From a virus: 64,000 nt of DNA. Made by a program: the position numbers and the translations under genes. Under the pieces are notes generated by a model, which saw only the letters and a list, made by a program, of their open reading frames with translations, made no database searches and was not told the DNA's origin. Each line of letters opens with the position of its first letter. Positions within the stretch are counted from its first letter, which is position 1. Below, piece after piece: positions 1 through 60,677 of the stretch. Where the stretch lies: UHGV virus genome UHGV-0033085, one strand, 5' to 3'.

Positions 1-861
1 AACCTGGCCTCCCGTAATGCAGGCTTTATCAACAAGCGTTTTGACGGCGTGCTGGCAAGCGAACTGGCTGACCCGCAACTGTACAAAACCTTTACTGATG
101 CCGCTGAAGTGATTGGCGAAGCATGGGAAAGCCGCGAATTTGGTAAAGCTATCCGTGAAATCATGGCATTGGCTGACCTGGCTAACCGCTATGTCGATGA
201 ACAGGCTCCGTGGGTGGTGGCGAAGCAGGAAGGACGCGATGCCGATCTGCAGGCGATTTGCTCTATGGGCATTAACCTGTTCCGCGTGCTGATGACGTAC
301 CTGAAGCCGGTACTGCCGAAACTGACTGAACGTGCAGAAGCATTCCTGAATACAGAACTGACCTGGGATGGTATCCAGCAACCGCTGCTGGGCCATAAAG
401 TGAATCCGTTCAAGGCACTGTATAACCGTATCGATATGAAACAGGTGGAAGCACTGGTGGAAGCATCCAAAGAAGAAGTGAAAGCCACAGCCGCACCGGT
501 AACTGGCCCACTGGCTGACGACCCGATTCAGGAAACCATCACCTTTGACGACTTCGCCAAAGTTGACCTGCGTGTGGCGCTGATTGAAAACGCGGAGTTT
601 GTTGAAGGCTCTGACAAACTGCTGCGTCTGACACTGGATCTCGGTGGTGAAAAGCGTAATGTCTTCTCAGGCATCCGTTCTGCTTATCCAGACCCACAGG
701 CACTGATTGGTCGTCATACCATTATGGTGGCTAACCTGGCTCCGCGTAAAATGCGCTTCGGTATCTCTGAAGGCATGGTGATGGCTGCTGGCCCCGGCGG
801 GAAAGATATCTTCCTGTTAAGCCCGGATGCTGGTGCTAAACCAGGCCACCAGGTTAAGTAA
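1..861 (+). CDS. metG: methionine--tRNA ligase MetG, C-terminal part (5-prime end outside window)
   Basis: Frame 1 open from base 1 to TAA 859-861; translation resembles the anticodon-binding and C-terminal tRNA-binding domains of enterobacterial MetRS. Confidence 0.9.
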
Positions 862-883
862 TTAAACAACCTCTCTTCGCAAT

Positions 884-908
884 GCCCGGCAACACGCTGG
901 GCATTTTC
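884..908 (+). terminator. intrinsic terminator of metG
   Basis: GCCCGGC-aacac-GCTGGGC hairpin followed by ATTTT, 23 nt after the metG stop. Confidence 0.6.
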
Positions 909-944
909 ATATAGACACAATCCCTTCTGATTTACACAGTACCT

Positions 945-1010
945 AAAACAATTTGTTTTCTGCCTTTTGTTGTTTGAGATAATAAGCCACATAAGAAAAC
1001 AACTTGTTTT
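945..1010 (+). promoter_or_regulatory. promoter-operator module: palindrome AAAACAattTGTTTT (945-959), -10 GATAAT (about 977-982), palindrome AAAACAactTGTTTT (996-1010)
   Basis: Two copies of a 15-bp palindrome 51 bp apart bracketing a sigma70-like -10 box; RBS and start codon follow within 15 nt. Confidence 0.5.
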
Positions 1011-1022
1011 GGAGTGGTTGAA

Positions 1023-1322
1023 ATGTTGAACATTACCCAAGCCTACCAGGTGGCATTGATCAGTTCATCTCATACATCAGAGGAAGATGCTCGCCGATTC
1101 ATGATCGCAAGCAATGAGCTGGATTGGGTTTCACAAATTGACGGCGGTTGTATTGTCCACGCTGGGTTACAGGATGATGTCTGGAAAGACGACTTGCGTC
1201 GATATGGTATATCCGAAGGCGCGATTGCTAACATTCAGAAAGTACTTGATGTAGGCTTTGACTCTGTACATTTTGATTGTGGTGCACCGGTCGTTGAAGG
1301 GCTTGAGTGCTGGCAATGGTAA
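1023..1322 (+). CDS. hypothetical small protein
   Basis: ORF track 1014..1322; ATG at 1023 directly after operator and GGAG. Confidence 0.5.
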   Translation: MLNITQAYQVALISSSHTSEEDARRFMIASNELDWVSQIDGGCIVHAGLQDDVWKDDLRRYGISEGAIANIQKVLDVGFDSVHFDCGAPVVEGLECWQW

Positions 1323-1358
1323 TCCGGCAATCGCTTCATACTAGATAACGGAGAATTT

Positions 1359-1544
1359 ATGCTTAAAGAAGACTCATATCTACTAAAGGCGCTTGAAATG
1401 CGTGGCGTTGAACCTACAGTGAAAAACGCTCACGATATCTACCTTCAGTTTTCGCCAGAGCTGAAACAGCTCATAAATAAATATGGAGTGAATGACTCCA
1501 GCGTCAAAGCCATGATAGATGATGAATTAGACCATCTCATCTAA
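1359..1544 (+). CDS. hypothetical small protein
   Basis: ORF with GGAG 7 nt upstream of ATG. Confidence 0.5.
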   Translation: MLKEDSYLLKALEMRGVEPTVKNAHDIYLQFSPELKQLINKYGVNDSSVKAMIDDELDHLI

Positions 1545-1656
1545 CCAAACCGTTGATAATGGCGGTCACAATTTGATTCTTTTCTATAAGAATCCGTTGA
1601 TCGCCACTACTCCCCTTCCATGCCTGCAATCACATCCTTAAATATCAATAGGTTAT

Positions 1657-1684
1657 AGTTGTTTATACCAATAAGAAAACAACT
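1657..1684 (+). promoter_or_regulatory. split operator-like inverted repeat AGTTGTTT-N12-AAACAACT
   Basis: Same half-sites as the AAAACA-N3-TGTTTT palindrome but in tail-to-tail arrangement, at the start of the CA-rich unit. Confidence 0.35.
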
Positions 1685-1689
1685 GAATA

Positions 1690-2512
1690 ACAGATCAACG
1701 AAACGTCAACGCTTTCACCCGATTTGGTCTAAAAAATTGACGTTTTCACACATCACTTCTTATACTCGTAATCCTACGCAGCAGACAGCTCCACAGCGTC
1801 CAATTTTCACTACAGACGACTCAACACACTACCAACAAAAACACACGCTCAAAATCGCTCCCGTTACGTTACACAACCATATAAACAACTTATTTTCAGG
1901 CATAACAAAACAACTAAATAACACATATGCCACTCCCCAAAACAACCAACCTCTTTATGGCAGGCTACCGAAAAGACCCACCTCTTCTTCCCAGGCTACC
2001 GGACAGCCAACCTAACTTTCACAGGCAATCCGAAAACATTCATACGCGCGATACCCACGACACGCCATTCCCCAAACAGCGAAGAAACACCAGAATCACT
2101 GAAAACCCAACGAAGCCTGTAACCGCAAGGATTCTCTCAATCCCAAAAGACACGAAACATAACAATCACGGGAAACGCCATTACCCAATACACGAATAAC
2201 TACAAAAGCCCTTCACGCACTCCAGACAAACAACTCAAACACAACAACGAAAGGAATCGCCCACCTGCCATTACTCCATACATGGAGAAGAACAATCACC
2301 AAAACGACGAGAACACCCCATAGAAGAACCACCGCAAAACGAACGAAACCACATACACCGACAGAGAAAACAACACACCCAATTCACCAACAGAAATAGT
2401 CGCCGTATAGAACATTCTGGAAGGAGTGAGCATTAACGCCTATAGAGAGGTTGAGACAGATAAAACACAACATGCATAGCGAAGAAGCCAGGTATGTATA
2501 AGTGGGGAGGGA
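1690..2512 (+). ncRNA. candidate non-coding CA-rich, G-depleted transcript unit
   Basis: About 0.8 kb where the + strand is almost only A and C; lies between an operator-bearing promoter region and a terminator; overlapping ORFs are low-complexity without RBS. Confidence 0.3.
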
Positions 2513-2536
2513 AGGAGGGGTGTCGCCTCCTTTTTC
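2513..2536 (+). terminator. intrinsic terminator
   Basis: AGGAGG-ggtgtcg-CCTCCT hairpin followed by TTTTT. Confidence 0.55.
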
Positions 2537-2596
2537 GTATTTATTCAACTCCTGATTTTGTCCCCCGTAACACCCCTACGGTCAGCCTTCGGTCCA

Positions 2597-2733
2597 TACA
2601 GGGAAAAGGCTGCATCCCGCTACAGAAACGGCTGGGTTGCCTTCGGGGAACGGCTGGAGGTTTTCAGGGAAACGGTCGAGTTGCCTGTGTGGATTTCGGG
2701 AAAAGGCTCGATGCCGGTTCAGGAACGGCGGCG
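2597..2733 (+). repeat. iteron-like direct repeat array (six copies, consensus TTCAGGGAAACGGCTG)
   Basis: Copies starting about 2599, 2623, 2645, 2665, 2695, 2719; spacing 21-30 bp. Confidence 0.6.
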
Positions 2734-3066
2734 TACCGGTATAGCGTGAGGGAGAGTTTCGGCTACCCACCTGCAATGTGCGGGAAGAAGAGAGGCGCTC
2801 ACGTGCAGGCGGACTAACTTACCGTTGGACTCCCTTTGAATGCCCAACTACAGCGTAATTGTGCCAGAGAGTCAGCGGGTCACAATCGATTTCAGTAGGT
2901 TTTCGGGGAGAGGATTATTCTGCCCACCAGCCACCTTCGGCCACTAAATCAGAATAATGTAAAAAGTGTACTCGGTACTGAACCTGAAAACTCACTGCCA
3001 AAACCACATTCACCGGAATAAAATCCTTTTTCACCTGTGCGTTATTACGATAATAACACCAACAAG

Positions 3067-3081
3067 AAAACATGTTGTTTA
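3067..3081 (+). promoter_or_regulatory. operator palindrome AAAACAtgtTGTTTA downstream of a GATAAT -10
   Basis: Member of the AAGAAAACA-N3-TGTTT family; overlaps the first ATG of the downstream ORF. Confidence 0.45.
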
Positions 3082-3422
3082 AGAATTGCTTTATGTTTGC
3101 AAATATCGACATCAACCAAATCAAGAAATTGACTCAAAAAGAGTTTGACCAGTTCTATGAGCTGGAAGGTTGGTCTTCCACTCTGATTAATTCAAGATGG
3201 GTGCTGGAGCTGATGACTCGTGATGATGCACCTGCTTTGATGATCAGCGACCTGGGTGAAGATGCTGACTTTATGGATATGAGCGAATTTTGTGTGGACA
3301 CATACAACCGCAGCCAGAAGTACTACTTCACATGCGATAGCGAGAACGACGTGATTTCTAAGGTCTATCTTCACCTTGTCCAGCATTGGGACGTTCAGGA
3401 GTTTCTTGAAGTATTCGAGTAA
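3072..3422 (+). CDS. hypothetical acidic protein
   Basis: ORF track; start uncertain (ATG 3072 or 3096). Confidence 0.45.
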   Translation: MLFKNCFMFANIDINQIKKLTQKEFDQFYELEGWSSTLINSRWVLELMTRDDAPALMISDLGEDADFMDMSEFCVDTYNRSQKYYFTCDSENDVISKVYLHLVQHWDVQEFLEVFE

Positions 3423-3551
3423 ACCCAACCAAAGCCAGCAATGCTGGCTTAACTTCATCTATAGCCGCAGGGAAGAACCTGCATATCGCTCATGCACCTG
3501 ATCAATATGCTTTGTAGCCGTTTTCTTACTGGTATTATTTACGCCATTGAG

Positions 3552-3566
3552 AAAACAAGTTGTTTA
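3552..3566 (+). promoter_or_regulatory. operator palindrome AAAACAagtTGTTTA
   Basis: Family member 13 nt after a TATTAT -10-like box; followed by GGAG and ATG 3577. Confidence 0.45.
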
Positions 3567-3576
3567 CGGAGTTGTG

Positions 3577-3888
3577 ATGAAAAAATCATTGGTTCTTGGT
3601 CTGGACAAAGACCAGAAGAGAAAAGAGAAGCCTGCACTGGTTGCTCAATTAACTTTGCTGGACATCGTTGCCAATGGGACCTCTATTCGTCTGTTCCGTG
3701 AAACAGCGGTGTCTTTCGATAAAAACACCTTTACTCGTTATGTAATGAATGTTCGTCGCCAGCGTGGAAAAGGCTGGGTGGCATTTCAAAGAATGTGGCC
3801 GGAACATCAGCTCGAACTGGCTTTGATGGAAGTTAACCGCGTGGCCCAGCAAGAGATTCAGAGAGCATCAGTGATGGCAATAGCCTGA
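3577..3888 (+). CDS. hypothetical basic protein
   Basis: ORF track 3547..3888; ATG 3577 preceded by ACGGAG. Confidence 0.5.
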   Translation: MKKSLVLGLDKDQKRKEKPALVAQLTLLDIVANGTSIRLFRETAVSFDKNTFTRYVMNVRRQRGKGWVAFQRMWPEHQLELALMEVNRVAQQEIQRASVMAIA

Positions 3889-3923
3889 TAATGTGCAAGT
3901 GGCAATTAGTCGACAGTACGACA

Positions 3924-3950
3924 GCCCCGCCATCCTTACGGGGCTTTTTT
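3924..3950 (+). terminator. intrinsic terminator
   Basis: GCCCCG-N9-CGGGGC hairpin plus T6. Confidence 0.65.
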
Positions 3951-3955
3951 GTATT

Positions 3956-3971
3956 GTAAGTACATACTTAC
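3956..3971 (+). promoter_or_regulatory. TAAGTA box (GTAAGTACATACTTAC)
   Basis: Member of the recurrent GATAAGTAAGTA / TAAGTA-N-TACTTA family, 44 nt upstream of ATG 4015. Confidence 0.4.
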
Positions 3972-4014
3972 GATCATAGAATAGAAAAATAACCAATACA
4001 CTACGGAGAGTGAA

Positions 4015-4410
4015 ATGACCGTTAAACGCGAAAAACTGACAGTTGATGTTTACTATGCCTCTGAAACCGCCGAAGGTAAGAATGTGGCAAAAATCACCGT
4101 TGTTACGTACAACACCGAAACTGGTGCCGAAGTCCAGGCCAGTACGATCGTGCGTAAAGGTGATGCCTCCGGCGGCGAGTACGCGACTCAATACCAGTCC
4201 ATTCTCGATGCAACTGACCCGCTGCTGCTGAAAATCGAGAACTACTTCCGCCAGGTTGATGAAGAGGTGTTTGAAACCATGATGAGTATGGTTAATTCCG
4301 TATTCACCTCCAGCCTGAACACCAGCACCACCTGGATTGGCCAGTACGGTCTGCGTATTACCTCCGGCATTCCTGCTGACACCTTAATCCCTGAAAGCGT
4401 ATTCGCTTAA
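4015..4410 (+). CDS. hypothetical protein
   Basis: ORF with ACGGAGAG RBS. Confidence 0.55.
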   Translation: MTVKREKLTVDVYYASETAEGKNVAKITVVTYNTETGAEVQASTIVRKGDASGGEYATQYQSILDATDPLLLKIENYFRQVDEEVFETMMSMVNSVFTSSLNTSTTWIGQYGLRITSGIPADTLIPESVFA

Positions 4411-4419
4411 TCCTCTTTA

Positions 4420-4446
4420 AATGGCGCGTAAACCGCGCCATTTTCT
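4420..4446 (+). terminator. intrinsic terminator
   Basis: AATGGCGCG-taaac-CGCGCCATT hairpin followed by TTTC. Confidence 0.6.
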
Positions 4447-4454
4447 TATGCCCG

Positions 4455-4520
4455 ATAACAATTTGTTTTCTGCCTTTATCTTACTGCGATAATTACAACA
4501 ACAAGAAAACAACGTGTTTA
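4455..4520 (+). promoter_or_regulatory. promoter-operator module: ATAACAattTGTTTT (4455-4469), -10 GATAAT (4488-4493), AAAACAacgTGTTTA (4506-4520)
   Basis: Near-duplicate of the 945-1010 module, including the shared TTTGTTTTCTGCC string. Confidence 0.5.
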
Positions 4521-4537
4521 TTAGGTGGTGAAATAAT

Positions 4538-4690
4538 ATGGAATACATTGTTACTGTCGCTTCGTCAGATCGGGAGTCGTTACTTGAGGCTATCAGAAGC
4601 ATGGAAAACATCATCATGTCAGAGCAGGAGCTTAATGGTTATCTTGAGATGGATGATTTTTCTATCAAAATGGAGGTGAAGAATGACTGA
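4538..4690 (+). CDS. hypothetical small protein (50 aa)
   Basis: Not in ORF track (under 60 aa); AGGTGG RBS; stop overlaps next start (ATGA). Confidence 0.35.
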   Translation: MEYIVTVASSDRESLLEAIRSMENIIMSEQELNGYLEMDDFSIKMEVKND

Positions 4691-4964
4691 CTTCACCATT
4701 ACCCCTAAAGCACAAAATGTATTTCTTGAATCATGGCTGGACTTGCCGGAAACAGAACAGCAAGAAATGGATCATGTGGAATATGACGAGCAGGTAAGCA
4801 CGCGATTCTTCCACTTTGAGGGCTGCGTTTACGACATTGCCGACTTCATGCGAGATGACCGCTTCCCTGAATGGCACGCCAGTTATCCACTAAACGCCTT
4901 CGCCATGCTGATGATCCGTGTGGATGATTCAGGGGATACCATCGACATCGGTCTGCTCCACTAA
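4683..4964 (+). CDS. hypothetical protein
   Basis: ORF track; start overlaps upstream small ORF. Confidence 0.5.
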   Translation: MTDFTITPKAQNVFLESWLDLPETEQQEMDHVEYDEQVSTRFFHFEGCVYDIADFMRDDRFPEWHASYPLNAFAMLMIRVDDSGDTIDIGLLH

Positions 4965-4969
4965 AGAGT

Positions 4970-4993
4970 AAGGCCACCAATGCTGGTGGCCTT
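4970..4993 (+). terminator. conserved GC-rich hairpin AAGGCCACCA-atgc-TGGTGGCCTT (terminator-like, no U-run)
   Basis: Perfect 10-bp stem right after the stop codon; near-identical copy at 6039-6062. Confidence 0.4.
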
Positions 4994-5064
4994 AAATGAC
5001 AACACTTTGCCTTACTTCCTGATAGTAGCCTTATAAATCTTCTTTTTAGCCTATTTCATTCAGC

Positions 5065-5086
5065 GATAATTATCACATCGAAAACA
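5065..5086 (+). promoter_or_regulatory. GATAAT -10 plus AAAACAA half-site
   Basis: Same GATAAT-N10-AAAACA spacing as the other modules but only one half-site. Confidence 0.35.
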
Positions 5087-5101
5087 AACGAGGAATTAAA
5101 A

Positions 5102-6034
5102 ATGAAACCAGTATTTTTGGGACAAATTGACATTAGTGAATTGTTTTCAGTTAAAGATGGGTCCCAATATGACTGTGATTGCCTTGAACTTAATGGTCTT
5201 GAATATGAATACAGATTGGCTATTGTGAATGATGGTAAGAAGACATTTTCTGTCGAATGTTTTAAAAATACTTACTTTAAGCATGTGTTGAGAATAAGAC
5301 AGCGTGTGGAGATGTCAATTCGGGAAAACATCAAAAATAAATGTGAGTTTCTTGCGATTAAAAATGAAATAGATGCAATAAACTTTGTTACGTTCACTGA
5401 TAGTGGTCGATTGGCTATGCTGGAGCTATTTCATCTGATCGTTTCTAATAACAGTATAACAGAAGCCTTGATCAGTCTTTCAACTATAGTATCAAAAGAA
5501 AGAGAACACACTGGCGCTTTAATTGTAGAGAAGCTAGGTGGAATACTCGAGAAGATCAAAAATAAAGAGTTGATTATAGAATATGGCAAGGAAAGTAGAA
5601 AAAATAATTTACATTCAGCTTTTCGTTCCCCATATGTTGAGCGTTTAAATGGTTCGGCATCTTTTGTTAATTTAGAGTTTAATAGATTCTTTAGTTCTCT
5701 TTTTACAGAGTATGGAATTGTTATTGTGGAGGTAAATAATGAGAATGATGTGCCAAAAATCATAGTGCATTCGATGCCGGATATCCCTTTCAATGAGATT
5801 GAGAACAAACTGGAGATTTTAGACGATATAAATACAAAAAGCATGGAAGAACTCATAGAGTATCTGGCCGTAGATGCGGTAGCTATGGCTGATAATGATG
5901 TGTTTGGGGTTGGTGCACTGCATGAAGGCTATCTTGACGCCCTTGAACTTTACGGGACTGCTCGCTGGTTTCTGTCAGGATTAGTGGATGATGCGCCTTT
6001 ACTCATCAATACAGATTATTCTTATTCCAGTTGA
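5102..6034 (+). CDS. hypothetical protein (310 aa), AT-rich gene
   Basis: Long ORF with GAGG RBS; base composition clearly more AT-rich than flanks. Confidence 0.55.
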   Translation: MKPVFLGQIDISELFSVKDGSQYDCDCLELNGLEYEYRLAIVNDGKKTFSVECFKNTYFKHVLRIRQRVEMSIRENIKNKCEFLAIKNEIDAINFVTFTDSGRLAMLELFHLIVSNNSITEALISLSTIVSKEREHTGALIVEKLGGILEKIKNKELIIEYGKESRKNNLHSAFRSPYVERLNGSASFVNLEFNRFFSSLFTEYGIVIVEVNNENDVPKIIVHSMPDIPFNEIENKLEILDDINTKSMEELIEYLAVDAVAMADNDVFGVGALHEGYLDALELYGTARWFLSGLVDDAPLLINTDYSYSS

Positions 6035-6038
6035 AAAC

Positions 6039-6062
6039 AAGGCCACCAGCAGTGGTGGCCTT
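6039..6062 (+). terminator. conserved GC-rich hairpin AAGGCCACCA-gcag-TGGTGGCCTT
   Basis: Second copy of the 4970-4993 hairpin with a different loop. Confidence 0.4.
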
Positions 6063-6203
6063 AAATGACCATCCTGTTTCCCGCAGGCTAAAAACACCAA
6101 CCTCTTACCTCCAGGCAACCGACAAACCCACCTGTTCCCGTCCGGCTACCGCAACTTTCCACTTTGACGCCTTATTCGTACAACGATAATTAACACAAAC
6201 AAG

Positions 6204-6218
6204 AAAACAATTTGTTAT
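6204..6218 (+). promoter_or_regulatory. operator palindrome AAAACAattTGTTAT downstream of GATAAT -10
   Basis: Family member; TTGACG -35-like and GATAAT upstream; GAGGA RBS downstream. Confidence 0.45.
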
Positions 6219-6769: not shown

Positions 6770-6890
6770 CAGGGAAATTTTCAGAAACGGCGAGGAACGT
6801 ATTCATGAGCCGACGGGGAACGGCCAGGATTTTTTCGGGAAACGGCTGCATTCGCCTTTATGTAGAAAAACATCGGGAAGCTGGTGGAAT
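6770..6890 (+). repeat. second iteron-like array (CAGGGAAA / CAGAAACGGC / GGGGAACGGCC / GGGAAACGGCTG / GGGAAGCTGG)
   Basis: Same repeat family as 2597-2733. Confidence 0.5.
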
Positions 6891-17508: not shown

Positions 17509-17548
17509 AAAACAAGTTGGTTAGCAGATGCAGTAAACAAGTTGTTTT
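17509..17548 (+). promoter_or_regulatory. two adjacent operator-like palindromes AAAACAagtTGGTTA and TAAACAagtTGTTTT
   Basis: AAAACA-N3-TGTTTT family, 40-80 nt upstream of the small terminase gene. Confidence 0.45.
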
Positions 17549-39941: not shown

Positions 39942-42900
39942 ATGTGGTACAGGGAAGGTACTATCACATTTACACAGGGCAGCAATACTCTGGTTGGGGC
40001 AGGGACAGCCTGGAACGTAACAGCTAATGGTGTGTTGCCGGGGATGATCGTCATTGGCCCCGACAACAAGCTGTATGAGATCAAGCGCGTAACCAGTGAT
40101 ACGAACATTGTTCTCTCAGAACCTTATACCGGCGAAACTCAGTCTGAAGTTCCGTGCCGAATCATTACGACCTATGAAGGCGACTTAACACAGTTTAGCG
40201 CGCGCTTTACTGCACTAATGTCGCGTATGTCGGCTGATTCAAAGTCCATGCGCAGTTGGTTGACTGCTCTGGATGAGGTGACAATCGAGCGTGAAGACGG
40301 TACAGAAGTGACCGTTAAGCCGCTAATGCAGATCGTCAACGAGCACAACGAAAACGTTGAGTGGTATAAAAATAACACTGACGCGATTAATGCTGCTGGC
40401 GACAAAGCTCGTGAGGCGGCGGCCAGTGCTGCCGCAGCAGCCGAAAGCGCCAATACCGCTGGAGAAAAAGCCTCTCAAGCGTCTCAAAGTGCATCCGCTG
40501 CGGCATCTTCACAAAGTGCTGCAAGTGCGAGTGCAACTGCTGCGAAAAAATCTGAAACGAACGCAGAATCAGCACATCTAGCGGCAGCAGAATCAGCGTC
40601 TGTAGCGTCGACCAAAGCATCGGAGGCAGCAACATCTGCGTCCAGTGCCTCTGCATCTAAGGATGCAGCCAAAGCATCAGAGACTAACGCTTCATCGAGT
40701 GCAAACGCGGCTGCATCATTTGCAACAGAAGCTGAAAATTCGTCTAAGGCAGCAAAAGCGTCAGAGACAAACGCAAAAGCATCTGAAACGGCAGCCGGGC
40801 AGAGTGCATCGTCTGCAAACAGTTCGAAATCTGCGGCAGAAGCGTCAGCAAGCGCAGCCTCAGCAAGTGCGGATAGTGCTTCATCAAGTGCAACTGCGGC
40901 AGGAAAATCTGCGGATAGTGCATCGTCATCAGCGACAATAGCTACCACAAAAGCGACAGAGGCGACAAGTCAGGCTACAGCTGCTAAAAATTCAGCATCG
41001 GCAGCAAAAACCTCTGAAACAAATGCAAAGGTCTCAGAAGACAATGCGGCTTCCTCTAAGGCGGCAGCTGCTGAATCTGCAAGTTCTGCGTCTGCATCAG
41101 CCACCTCAGCATCCGCTTCAAAAGATGAGGCGACCAAGCAGGCATCAGCAGCGAAGGGTAGTGCTTCAACGGCATCCACGAAAGCAACAGAGGCGGCAGG
41201 TAGTGCGACGGCTGCATCTCAGAGCAAAGCTGCTGCTGAATCCGCTGCGACCCGTGCAGAAGCTGCCGCTGATCGTGCTGAAGAGATCGCCGGTGCAGTT
41301 GCGATGGAAGACGCAAGCCTTACCACCAAAGGTGTTGTGAAACTTAGCAGTGCTGTCGATAGCACCAGTGAATCGCTGGCCGCAACGCCAAAGGCAGTTA
41401 AAGCAGTCAATGACAATGCGAACAGCAGGGTGCCATCTAACCGAAAAATTAACGGGAAAGCACTGACTGCGGATATCACATTAACGCCGAAAGATATTGG
41501 TACTTTAAATTCAATAACGATGTCTTTCTCTGGCGGGGCCGGGTGGTTCAAACTGGCTACTGTTACAATGCCACAAGCGAGTTCCATCGTTTACATCGCA
41601 TTGATTGGTGGCGCTGGTTACAACGTCGGCTCCCCACATCAGGCAGGCATTTCAGAACTGGTTCTACGAGCAGGCAATGGAAACCCCAAAGGGATTACAG
41701 GTGCTTTGTGGAAGCGTACAGCTGTCGGATTAACGAATTTCGCCTGGATCAACACATCCGGCGATACATATGATATTTACGTTGAAATTGGCAATTATGC
41801 GACGAGTGTAAATATCCATTGGGATTGTACTGCAGATGCGTCAGTTTCTATTTATACATCGCCAACATATTCAGCGAGTAAGCCTTCCAGCGTTACCGAT
41901 GGTGTTGTTTATACGATGTATAGCACACATCAGAAACCTACACCATCAGATATTGGAGCACTGCCAACAACCGGAGGAACAGTTTCAGGTCCGTTGTCTG
42001 TTACAGGTGGATTAACTGGTTCATTGAATGGTAATGCAAGTACAGCCACGAAATTGCAGACGGCAAGATCTATCGGTGGAGTTGTTTTCGACGGTTCTGC
42101 AAATATTAACCTTCCAGGTGTAAACACTACGGGTAATCAGAACACTACTGGTAATGCTGCAACTGCTACAAAACTTCAGACTGCAAGAAAAATATCCGGT
42201 GTTCCATTTGATGGTTCTACTGATATCACTTTAACCGCTGCGCATGTTGCCGCTTTCGCAAGAAGGGCAACAGGGTCATATGCGGATGCTGATGGTGGCG
42301 TTCCCTGGAATGCCGAATCAGGCGCTTACAATGTCACCAGCTCTGGCGAAAGCTATATTCTGGTTAACTTCTATACCGGAGTCGGAAGTTGCCGCACCCT
42401 GCAGATGAAGGCACATTACAGAAATAGAGGTCTGTTCTACCGTTCTTCAAGAGACGGTTATGGTTTTGAAAGTGGTTGGGAGCAGGTTTACACGACTGGA
42501 TTTATGCCTCAGCCGGCTGATATAAACGCACCAACCGCTGCCGCTGGATGGTTAAATAGTGGTAACGGAACGGCATTTACGACTGCTCAATTTATAACTT
42601 GGCTAAATAATCAGGGGGCATTTACAAACAAACATTGGATCGCACGGTGCTCATGGACTTACGCCAACAATAATTATATAGACGACACTGGTTGCGGTAG
42701 GATCGATCTATCTGGTTCCGTGATTGAGGTGTTTAGTAATAAGGCAACAAGCCACTACACTATTCGTGTTACAACGACAACAACATCAGGTCATGGTGGT
42801 GTTAATAATGCGGAATTTATTTATGTGTACAATGGGAGTGATTATGCGCCAGGCTGGCGTCGTTCTTATAACACTAGAAACAAACCAACAGCTTCTGATG

Positions 42901-59192: not shown

Positions 59193-60296
59193 ATGAAAAA
59201 TAGCTTTGACAGAGCACGCGCTGCGGAGAACACCTCAAAAGAGGCGATTGAGTATCTCGAAAGAGCATCTCAAATGCAGGCCGTTATGATCTCCCAGGTC
59301 AGCAATGACATGAGATTCTCGGACGCATTCATGTTATTCACTCGCTTATCTCTGCTGATAACAAGACGTCGGCCAGAGATCGCTGTTCATTGTATTTTGA
59401 TACATGTTTTGCCGCACATTGCCGATGTAAAAGTAAGTGACATTAATAGGTTCATGGTGAACCAACTGGTCAACCCACTAATACTGGATGGCAAAATTGT
59501 TATGGGCCGCCGCGTTTTCTCTCTGATGAAGCAGTTCCTTAGCTGGTGCGCCTTCCAGGGGATGATAGACGTGTCACCGTTAAACGATATGTCACTTAAC
59601 AAAGTTGCCGGTGGCGCAAAGCCCACACCTCGCGAGCGGAAGCTGACCGACGCAGAGGTATGGGTGTTCTGGAATATATGGGACTACTTCAATGTGTGCG
59701 CTGGTACAAAATGGGCGGCCAGGCTGTGTCTTGTATCCGCAAGACGACCTGACGAAGTACTGCGTGCTAAAAAAAGTGAGTTCAATCTTAAGCGTGGGGT
59801 TTGGAATCAAGGCAAGAGGAACAAATCTGCCCGTGAGCATTCGCTGCCTTTAAGCACATTAATGCGCACATGTATTGAAGAGTTGTTCGAATACGGTAAA
59901 GGCAGCCAGTGGCTCGTGCCTTCGAATAAAAAAATCGGGAAAGACCTTCCTATGTCTAAAGTGGCAATAGCCCAGGCATTACGTCGTATTCTGGAACGAC
60001 CAGAACTGATGGAGCTTGAGCCATTTACACCCCGAGACTTGCGCCGTACTGCGCGTAGTTACTTCCCAGCATTAGACATAAGCCAGGAGGTATCACGCAA
60101 AATCATGAACCACAGTCTTGAGGGGATAGATCGAGTCTACGACCGGCACGATTATATGGACGAGATGCGAGACGCCTTAGAAAGTTTCTCGACGTACATC
60201 GCATCAATCGTAGAGCAACCGGATTTAGACGAAATTGACCACAAATTCAAGGGAGATCGTCTATCAACAGAGCTTATTCGTGTAAATTTTTCATAG
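59193..60296 (+). CDS. tyrosine recombinase / phage integrase
   Basis: Conserved LVSARRPDEV, TPRDLRRTA and VYDRHDYMDE blocks consistent with the R..H-x-x-R..Y catalytic signature. Confidence 0.8.
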   Translation: MKNSFDRARAAENTSKEAIEYLERASQMQAVMISQVSNDMRFSDAFMLFTRLSLLITRRRPEIAVHCILIHVLPHIADVKVSDINRFMVNQLVNPLILDGKIVMGRRVFSLMKQFLSWCAFQGMIDVSPLNDMSLNKVAGGAKPTPRERKLTDAEVWVFWNIWDYFNVCAGTKWAARLCLVSARRPDEVLRAKKSEFNLKRGVWNQGKRNKSAREHSLPLSTLMRTCIEELFEYGKGSQWLVPSNKKIGKDLPMSKVAIAQALRRILERPELMELEPFTPRDLRRTARSYFPALDISQEVSRKIMNHSLEGIDRVYDRHDYMDEMRDALESFSTYIASIVEQPDLDEIDHKFKGDRLSTELIRVNFS

Positions 60297-60677
60297 AGAC
60301 TTTATGGCCTCAACAACCTTTTGTGATGCGCCTTTCTCTTTACCGAATCGCTCGTTATATGCAGCAAGAACCTGTTTTTCGTCCTCGTTAAGAGGAGCGG
60401 TGCCTTCTTTGTATAAAAATGCTGCGAGTTCAGGTTGGCGTTCTTCCAGCACCATCATCATAAGACGACTTGGCTCAATACCCAGCGCCAGCGCCAACGG
60501 ACGAACCTTATCGATAGGCAAAGGAATTTTGCCACTTTTAATTAAAGAAAGGTTGTTGGCATTTTTATAACCAATAAGTCTGGCTATTTGGGCCTGACTC
60601 ATAGGTGAGGATTCAATCAGCCCTGCGATAAAAGCAGCATAGCGACTTTCTATAAATTCAATCTTGTTGTCAGACAT
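60291..60677 (-). CDS. XRE-family helix-turn-helix regulator
   Basis: HTH segment MSQAQIARLIGYKNANNLSLIKSGK; convergent with integrase. Confidence 0.7.
   Translation of the reverse strand: MSDNKIEFIESRYAAFIAGLIESSPMSQAQIARLIGYKNANNLSLIKSGKIPLPIDKVRPLALALGIEPSRLMMMVLEERQPELAAFLYKEGTAPLNEDEKQVLAAYNERFGKEKGASQKVVEAIKSL

Follow-up and report, generated by a model that had tools for sequence, protein, structure and literature searches.

Introduction

Rho is recruited by nascent RNA of at least 80 nt that is untranslated, unstructured, C-rich and G-poor. In phage lambda, the repressed early promoter pR is followed by an untranslated RNA of this C-rich, G-poor kind, which carries rutA and rutB of the Rho-dependent terminator tR1, and then by the iterons of ori-lambda and the delayed early genes. 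The virus genome UHGV-0033085, of which we analysed a stretch of 64,000 nt (hereafter the window, to which all positions refer), contains a CA-rich, G-depleted block at positions 1690–2512 that appears to be embedded in an analogous order of elements. Unlike in lambda, the rut-like zone extends over ~600–700 nt instead of ~100 nt, there is neither a cro-like gene nor a recognisable nut (boxA/boxB) site, and no N-like protein was found. We tentatively propose that the block is a cis-acting, structure-free leader with more C than G, which would load Rho and thereby gate transcription into the adjacent iterons and early genes.

Other described systems resemble the block in part. The RARE element in the leader of Salmonella mgtCBR is described as an RNA that acts on Rho itself, beyond recruiting it; unlike the block, it is short, cis-acting and governed by a leader open reading frame (ORF). 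CsrB and CsrC, which act on CsrA, and CrcZ, which acts on Hfq/Crc through A-rich 'CA' motifs, are likewise non-coding RNAs with their own promoter and terminator and with accessible repeated motifs, but the block RNA would be 2–3 times longer and essentially hairpin-free, and it shows no GGA or ARN enrichment and no Rfam match and is essentially absent from lysogens at steady state. By analogy, the lytic replicon of P1, in which the C1-controlled promoter P53 reads through oriL, may be compared with the block as a repressor-run promoter beside a replication element, and ColE1 RNA II and the T4 origin R-loops as untranslated transcripts aimed at an origin-like array. However, the P1 transcript is a messenger for kilA/repL and ColE1 RNA II folds extensively, whereas the block RNA is non-coding, structure-free and not hybrid-prone. 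The unit thus differs from Rho terminators, RARE and sponge RNAs in its length of ~700 nt, its operator-flanked promoter and its near-total lack of structure.

Sequence matches identify the source stretch as an Escherichia coli phage-plasmid of the SSU5/pHCM2 type. Phage-plasmids of this type are frequent in Enterobacteriaceae of clinical origin, with CTX-M-15 and dfrA51 among the resistance genes they carry, and the control of their lysis–lysogeny decision and of their replication is essentially unstudied. The block is their largest conserved non-coding element and lies where exchangeable cargo gives way to the early lytic region. Existing annotations either omit it or wrongly assign hypothetical proteins to it, Rfam has no entry for it, and no description of it was found in the literature. 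Consisting of one promoter and one 0.7-kb block, it would provide a direct handle on the switch of these plasmids to phage growth. If it is a Rho gate, no dedicated Rho-loading leader known so far would come near it in length, and it would be a clean natural model of how composition alone programs termination.

Base composition and coding status

The + strand of the region 1690–2480 consists of 39.3% A, 31.0% C, 13.5% G and 16.2% T. The A+C content of the most biased 700-nt segment (1697–2396) reaches 72.1%, compared with a window mean of 50.2% (standard deviation [sd] 3.1) and 58% in the next-best segment, and in a related plasmid of 110,949 bp the block is again the most extreme 700-nt segment, 7.9 sd off the mean. 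A strong, G-depleted CA bias had been noticed in an earlier sequence-only reading of this DNA, and the segment 1697–2396 is indeed the top compositional outlier of both the window and the whole related plasmid. The description of the strand as almost entirely A and C was overstated, since G (12%) and T (14–16%) still make up 28% of this segment, and the long stretches said to lack G are not distinctive: the longest G-free runs measure 28–30 nt, below the 37 nt found elsewhere in the window. Similar CA-rich blocks, which that reading had suggested looking for in related elements, occur at the same position in 838 plasmids of PLSDB. Among relatives, the A+C content is 63–72% in all 29 of 29 sequence clusters, down to ~50–60% identity. 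Substitutions of A<->C (25%) and G<->T (4%) are about as frequent as expected from composition and therefore uninformative. Because A and C cannot pair with each other, selection for absence of structure would be expected to deplete G and U alike.

The block is non-coding. In an alignment of 20 representative relatives (alignment A2), no ORF is shared in position or frame, and close relatives truncate one another's longest ORFs. The ungapped blocks of this alignment show no three-base periodicity of substitutions, whereas the same test on three neighbouring genes detected a third-position excess (p<0.0005), and the indels are not multiples of three. The two ORFs predicted in the block (1659..2015 and 1927..2199) have no match in PHROGs or Pfam, while seven of the eight other ORFs scanned, including both genes flanking the block, match PHROG families of unknown function; no ribosome-binding sites were found for the block ORFs. 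These ORFs had been suspected to be artefacts, and the lack of a shared ORF, of periodicity and of a family match bears this out. It is accordingly highly improbable that the block codes for a low-complexity P/T/Q/N/H-rich protein, or for small membrane peptides on the GT-rich strand, even though long ORFs (up to 186 aa) exist in some relatives and stop triplets are less frequent than in dinucleotide shuffles. This depletion (TAA/TAG/TGA in all frames of 1773–2500) amounts to z -2.1 to -3.9 in four relatives and probably results from the concentration of T residues in conserved TAC-containing motifs.

RNA folding and rut-like composition

Folding of 1,276 windows of 300 nt on both strands of the 64 kb gave a mean energy of -79.2 kcal/mol (sd 13.1). 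The + strand of 1601–2500 accounts for all of the seven least stable windows (-18 to -36 kcal/mol), whereas the opposite strand of the same region is ordinary (-61 to -75 kcal/mol). Low foldability of the + strand was also found in SSU5, pKPHS1 and a Cronobacter plasmid. The consensus fold of the 20 relatives contains 64 pairs and -33 kcal/mol over 980 columns, and the 3' hairpin is the only structure maintained in it. A candidate covarying long-range pairing between the -10 region and GTATAAG at 2497–2503 was rejected, as it involves DNA upstream of the predicted transcription start and reflects a single lineage event. No Rfam covariance model matched either strand of 800–4000 up to E=1. The nucleotide identity of the block to SSU5 (70–76%) lies within the range of the adjacent genes (63–83%), which indicates that its sequence, and not composition alone, is under constraint. 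Together, these data suggest that the selected property is the absence of structure, on the very strand that bears the promoter and the hairpin.

Across 1773–2400, no 78-nt window has a C/G ratio below 1.64 (median 2.7), and the three longest rut-like stretches (C/G at least 2) of the whole window fall in the block. In composition the block is therefore a textbook fit to the C-rich, G-poor, unstructured RNA that the sequence-only reading had named as the loading substrate of Rho. Three features that characterize a rut site are present: the RNA is untranslated, as judged from the missing common ORF, periodicity, family match and ribosome-binding site; C exceeds G over at least ~78 nt; and little structure can form in the nascent RNA, given the seven least foldable windows. 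As the RNA is untranslated, unstructured and high in C/G throughout, Rho loading in cis suggests itself as a reading of the block; a Rho-loading leader is the parsimonious reading and the most likely of those considered, at less than even odds.

Transcription unit and expression in lysogens

The best sigma-70 match in 1500–3200 is a + strand promoter, TTGACG-N18-TATACT (1737–1766), which agrees with the consensus at 10 of 12 positions and has a predicted start at ~1773. Its position weight matrix (PWM) score is 12.7, where 32 sites in the 128 kb scanned score at least 10, and the pattern TTGAYR-N17-19-TATAYY is kept in 61 of 65 related loci; no promoter on the - strand of 2540–3100 scores above 8.2. 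At the other end, a G-rich run (GGGGAGGGAAGGAGGGG) forms the 5' arm of a hairpin and is followed by TTTTT (2504–2536, + strand), a 3' end resembling an intrinsic terminator. The hairpin with T-run claimed at 2513–2536 is thus present, located at 2509–2536. Every relative retains the hairpin, at -8 to -18 kcal/mol and with exchanges among GU, GC and AU pairs, whereas the U tract behind it is confined to the E. coli and Klebsiella lineages; the 3' end is therefore a good terminator here but not everywhere. From the positions of promoter and hairpin, an RNA of ~765 nt (~1773–2536) is predicted. The idea of a unit that is non-coding and equipped with a promoter and a 3' hairpin is hence supported, with the qualification that the transcript of ~0.85 kb originally proposed, without promoter coordinates, shortens to this predicted length.

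The promoter is bracketed by operator-like sites. The upstream site, O1 (1657–1695), comprises a split inverted repeat, AGTTGTTT (1657–1664) and AAACAACT (1677–1684), which had already been recognized as operator-like, and ATAAGAAAACAACTGAATAACAGAT. The downstream site, O2 (1882–1926), lies at ~+110 to +150 of the predicted RNA, consists of the palindrome TAAACAACTTATTTT and ATAACAAAACAACTAAATAACACAT, and is nearly invariant in alignment A2. O1 directly repeats positions 1902–1926 of O2 (88%, 231 bp apart) and is related to the palindrome AAAACAANTTGTTTT, of which the window contains 13 copies against 0.67 expected. Most of these copies belong to promoter–operator modules (...CGATAAT..CAACAAGAAAACAA.TTGTTTA) directly before small early genes, and together the modules look like a repressor regulon. 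A further inverted repeat, AACGTCAA ... TTGACGTT (1702–1744), overlaps the -35 hexamer with its right arm; it is single in the window, where 0 are expected, and is kept in alignments A1 and A2. The copies of AAAACAANTTGTTTT are located at 945–6218, 17509–17548, 47605, 50535 and 61206, and a candidate helix-turn-helix repressor for this regulon is encoded at 60291–60677 on the - strand.

Expression of the unit was assessed in the LF82/Cyrano transcriptome (PMC9928086, table S1), which reports log2(fpkm+5) (fpkm, fragments per kilobase per million) for a lysogen with a 96%-identical element. CYRAN_103, which spans the promoter and the predicted RNA up to ~240 nt from its start, had a value of 2.32, equal to 0 fpkm, in both LB samples and of 2.7–4.3, i.e. 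~1–14 fpkm, in nine other lysogen samples, and CYRAN_104, which covers the hairpin and iterons, had values of 2.6–4.7 (PMC9928086). The transcript that RNA-seq was expected to reveal is therefore essentially missing in the lysogen, and the unit behaves like the repressed structural (lytic) genes. Such near-silence is in keeping with the operator-like sites on either side and speaks against an RNA made constitutively in lysogens. RNA that is terminated by Rho and left unprotected would also be hard to detect in RNA-seq. In the same lysogens, expression of CYRAN_43, which lies beside the integrase and repressor and is annotated as a hypothetical protein, exceeds the prophage background 723-fold (PMC9928086); 59044–59202 is the only part of the window that matches its locus (L072, Cyrano 40268–40822), which is mostly absent here.

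The silence in lysogens bears on the suggestion that the RNA titrates Rho as a decoy. As originally stated this is not supported, since a decoy must be abundant and lysogen RNA-seq is close to nil; a decoy confined to the lytic phase, in which many RNA copies would occupy Rho hexamers and relieve termination and polarity on the long phage operons, is unlikely. The composition and folding data favour it as much as they do Rho loading in cis, and the strong promoter and the 3' hairpin, which would protect against exonucleases, fit a released RNA. C-rich RNA in trans competes for Rho in vitro, and a U-poor decoy would escape RNase E because this enzyme prefers U-containing single strands. Nearly all genes of the plasmid are co-oriented in long arrays, a layout exposed to polarity. 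However, Rho translocates off RNA and recycles, so that titration would require a very high RNA copy number; Rho would also terminate the synthesis of its own decoy, and the invariant motifs described below would find no explanation. A 2025 review describes no RNA decoys of Rho and notes the cis element RARE as its sole RNA antagonist.

In a broader form, it is doubtful that the unit gives rise in the lytic phase to an abundant RNA of ~765 nt, kept permanently single-stranded by selection for a U-poor A/C alphabet and capped by the 3' hairpin, that serves as the first decoy in trans for Rho or for another single-strand RNA-binding machine of the host; we are just as doubtful that it represents a new class of trans-acting, structure-free RNA. 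Were the decoy real, phage-plasmids present in ~4% of complete E. coli genomes would switch off host termination without a protein, and any action in trans would imply a new class of regulatory RNA defined by its lack of structure.

Proposed gating of transcription by Rho

In the mechanism that a Rho-loading leader suggests, a repressor would bind the operator-like repeats in the prophage, and its removal would activate the strong promoter at 1737–1766. The nascent, untranslated, single-stranded C-rich RNA would then load host Rho over ~600 nt, and Rho together with the G-rich hairpin at 2509–2536 would halt sporadic transcripts of this promoter as well as read-through from the variable cargo genes upstream. 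Halted transcripts would fail to enter the iterons at 2601–2735 or the early gene cluster beyond, the presumed targets of the gate, and passage would be possible only by sustained firing or with a putative antiterminator. The iteron segment is the most hybrid-favourable part of the window, so that uncontrolled transcription into it could matter. In favour of this mechanism, the promoter lies on the unfoldable strand and is bracketed by repeats of the 13-copy motif.

Several observations weigh against it. YC dimers are not more frequent than expected from composition, the spacing of C residues shows no clean period of 11–13 nt (the autocorrelation is noisy, and the z of 5 for C at lag 12 comes from non-independent sequences), and the consensus pause motif is not enriched in the block. 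A plain Rho terminator needs no strong promoter of its own, the invariant 31-nt units and GCCATT repeats are not explained by a Rho gate, and U is depleted like G, although Rho binding needs no U depletion. In the E. coli lineage, a Rho gate would in part duplicate the work of the hairpin with its T-run. The neighbouring genes, which encode small proteins without an informative Pfam or PDB sequence match, yielded no antiterminator, and the small genes downstream each seem to have their own promoter–operator module. The link between Rho and this locus is one that we infer from sequence features.

Two known signals of transcription elongation control were considered and rejected. The - strand sequence CGGTAGCCTG agrees with the RfaH ops element at 9 of 12 positions but lies on the wrong strand for the sole good promoter, and the boxA-like CGCTC motifs at 1847–1862 do not match the U-rich part of boxA.

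Repeated motifs and possible RNA-binding partners

The block carries three tandem 31-nt units on the + strand (CC.A.A..CCNACCTCTT.....CAGGCTA; 1937–2029), the third of which is degenerate, with the core CAGGCTACCGNAAAGACCNACCTC invariant. One extra copy is present in the related loci L008, L032 and L065, and a search with the unit pattern matched 59 viral contigs. Dispersed repeats of the form GCCATTMCYC..ATAC..G(G)A(G)AAGAAC (2064–2295, + strand) start at 2064, 2177 and 2267, and a weaker copy is found at 1929; their GCCATT core occurs in 3–5 exact copies per relative compared with 0.1 expected, inside conserved alignment blocks.

These repeats are best accounted for if the RNA serves as sponge or scaffold to some other protein, from host or phage, that binds single-stranded RNA sequence-specifically; as an explanation of the whole unit this is not very likely. 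On this explanation, the CA background would display repeated linear motifs, namely the 31-nt units and GCCAUUAC...GGAGAAGAAC. The motifs are both repeated and invariant despite ~30–40% overall divergence, the copy number of the 31-nt unit varies among relatives, and the unit has its own promoter, a 3' hairpin and gene-like conservation. On the other hand, no candidate partner protein was identified, and the RNA is essentially absent in lysogens. The motifs of CsrA (GGA/ANGGA), Hfq (ARN triplets) and MazF (ACA) stay within ~2 sd of shuffles, as do GGA, ANGGA and (ARN)3 in four relatives. Of the unstructured sponge envisaged by the sequence-only reading, the repeats are therefore present, and the motifs of these three proteins are not enriched.

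Pairing partners were also considered. AgvB, a prophage anti-sRNA that mimics the C/A-rich targets of GcvB, and SroC resemble the block in that a C/A-rich RNA of a mobile element could form pairs with the GU-rich R1 seed of GcvB. The block holds two 14-bp matches (2238–2251 and ~2462–2475) to GcvB, whose sequence was verified in all 5,426 of 5,426 genomes. A GcvB sponge was nevertheless rejected, because duplex scores match those obtained with shuffled sequence and with other windows, as expected from composition, and drop in relatives; unlike the short, Hfq-type AgvB, the block pairs with GcvB at shuffle level, and the pairing is lost in relatives. No antisense targets were evident elsewhere in the plasmid, the best scoring 28.2 bits against a null mean of 27.6. 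The RNA antitoxin of a type III toxin–antitoxin system (ToxI-like) was likewise rejected, as there are only 2–3 units of 31 nt and Tandem Repeats Finder reports none. The proteins encoded downstream belong to no toxin family in Pfam and have no known function in PHROGs.

Iterons and a possible lytic origin

A conserved AT-rich spacer, GTATTTATTCAA.TCCTGATTTT.TCCCCCGTAAC (2537–2575), separates the hairpin from six iterons (GGGAAAAGG / AGAAACGG / GGGGAACGG / GGGAAACGG ...; 2601–2735), which are spaced by 21–23 bp with one gap of 31 bp. They are of the type GGGAAAMGG, of which 2–6 copies were detected in relatives, and begin 65 bp behind the hairpin and 865 bp from the promoter. A second cluster of the same iteron with 22-bp phasing lies 4.2 kb away (6770–6845), so that the two clusters flank a 4-kb cluster of small early genes. 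The iterons differ from those of the repB plasmid replicon (GTATGCTGTCAGCGGT), which in the complete relative pR9-658-1 is a RepB-type replicon ~35 kb away from the block. The clusters could be a lytic origin, as an ori/crr-like pair, or a regulatory array.

This setting raises the possibility of an origin transcript, in which repressor-controlled transcription toward the iterons would activate a lytic origin or supply a primer or R-loop. Precedents are pR for ori-lambda and P53 for P1 oriL, and the primers or R-loops of ColE1, T4 and T7. Such a role is not very probable for the block. In its favour, the six phased iterons just past the hairpin are conserved together with the unit and are distinct from the distant repB iterons, and a second cluster exists; the paired clusters are reminiscent of P4 ori/crr. 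The RNA also has a G-rich run at its 3' end, and the annotation of the relative pR9-658-1 includes phage structural genes, DnaE, a DnaB-like helicase, RNase HI, RecA, ligase and tRNAs, with primase not among the annotated genes. With respect to RNA:DNA hybrids, the block has a mean preference of -0.056 kcal/mol per nt (27th percentile), while among all 200-nt segments of the window 2596–2795 favours hybrids with + strand RNA the most. An R-loop-prone region serving the iteron array, as suggested earlier, thus agrees with the adjacent iteron segment and not with the block itself, and in this lineage the hairpin and T-run would free the RNA ahead of the iterons. The neighbouring genes yielded no initiator protein, the cumulative skew of a related plasmid shows no origin signature here, and an origin transcript leaves a 700-nt structure-free leader without a reason.

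It is quite unlikely that the block acts purely at the DNA level, as a protein-binding array or a strand-biased tract for recombination, partition or packaging, with transcription incidental. The invariant motifs in direct orientation, the palindrome at the left edge, an iteron-like GGGAAACGC within the block (2170–2178), the RecA homologue of the phage and the near-absence of RNA in lysogens would fit such an element. RecA prefers GT-rich single strands, and the - strand of the block is GT-rich. However, double-stranded sites do not call for a base bias that is specific to one strand and extends over variable spacers, the motifs are irregularly spaced, and the unfoldability falls exactly on the strand with the promoter and hairpin.

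Distribution and surroundings of the block

The stretch begins inside the 3' end of a plasmid-borne metG and is 97% identical to E. coli plasmids of ~110 kb. Positions 1560–2900 as query matched 239 of 5,426 complete E. coli genomes, on plasmids every time, and the 838 plasmids in PLSDB derive from six enterobacterial genera (Klebsiella, Escherichia, Enterobacter, Salmonella, Citrobacter and Cronobacter). Related matches include phage Cyrano (96% identity), phage SSU5 (68%) and Klebsiella phage-plasmids (~70%). The element is also present in two contigs labelled 'Bacillota bacterium MAG' and 'Catenulispora yoronensis' (L068 and L069), which are probably contamination or mis-binning of enterobacterial phage-plasmid DNA.

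Across the 838 plasmids the location of the block is constant, with variable cargo on one side and the conserved iterons and early genes on the other. The cargo to the left is metG/apbC here, type I restriction genes in Klebsiella and luxR/ivy in Cronobacter; because these occupy the same place in different relatives, the slot is a cargo hot spot. The cargo at 1–861, and upstream of it in the relatives L001 and L007, comprises a full-length metG, apbC (MinD in the Cyrano annotation) and a HumD/LexA-like peptidase. The left edge of the homology common to all relatives is an imperfect palindrome of 47 bp, TGGCGGTCAC...GTTGATCGCCA (1560–1606), which is nearly invariant in alignment A1 and beyond which the gene content varies. 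Candidate roles are those of a centromere, a recombination site or a terminator; ATCGCCAC inside it may resemble the BoxB region of P1 parS.

A second variable slot is found in the early cluster, where an ORF of 310 aa (5102–6034) without a PHROG or Pfam match occupies a position that is filled differently in relatives; SSU5, for example, has a small repressor-like gene there. One mobile-element end (TGTCAACGCCAAGAT..TTGGCCGTTTTTCGCC...) is present near the iteron array in both L008 and L050, at two distinct insertion points: in L008 it follows the equivalent of 2573 and splits the CA unit from the iterons, and in L050 it follows the iterons. Chi (GCTGGTGG) occurs at 15 sites in the 64-kb window compared with 1.4 expected, 10 of them on the + strand; examples are 2924–2931 (-) and 4982–4989 and 6880–6887 (+). 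Several copies are located within terminator-like hairpins (GGCCACCAATGCTGGTGGCC, 4970–4995, and again at ~6040), and the excess of Chi may serve as protection against RecBCD.

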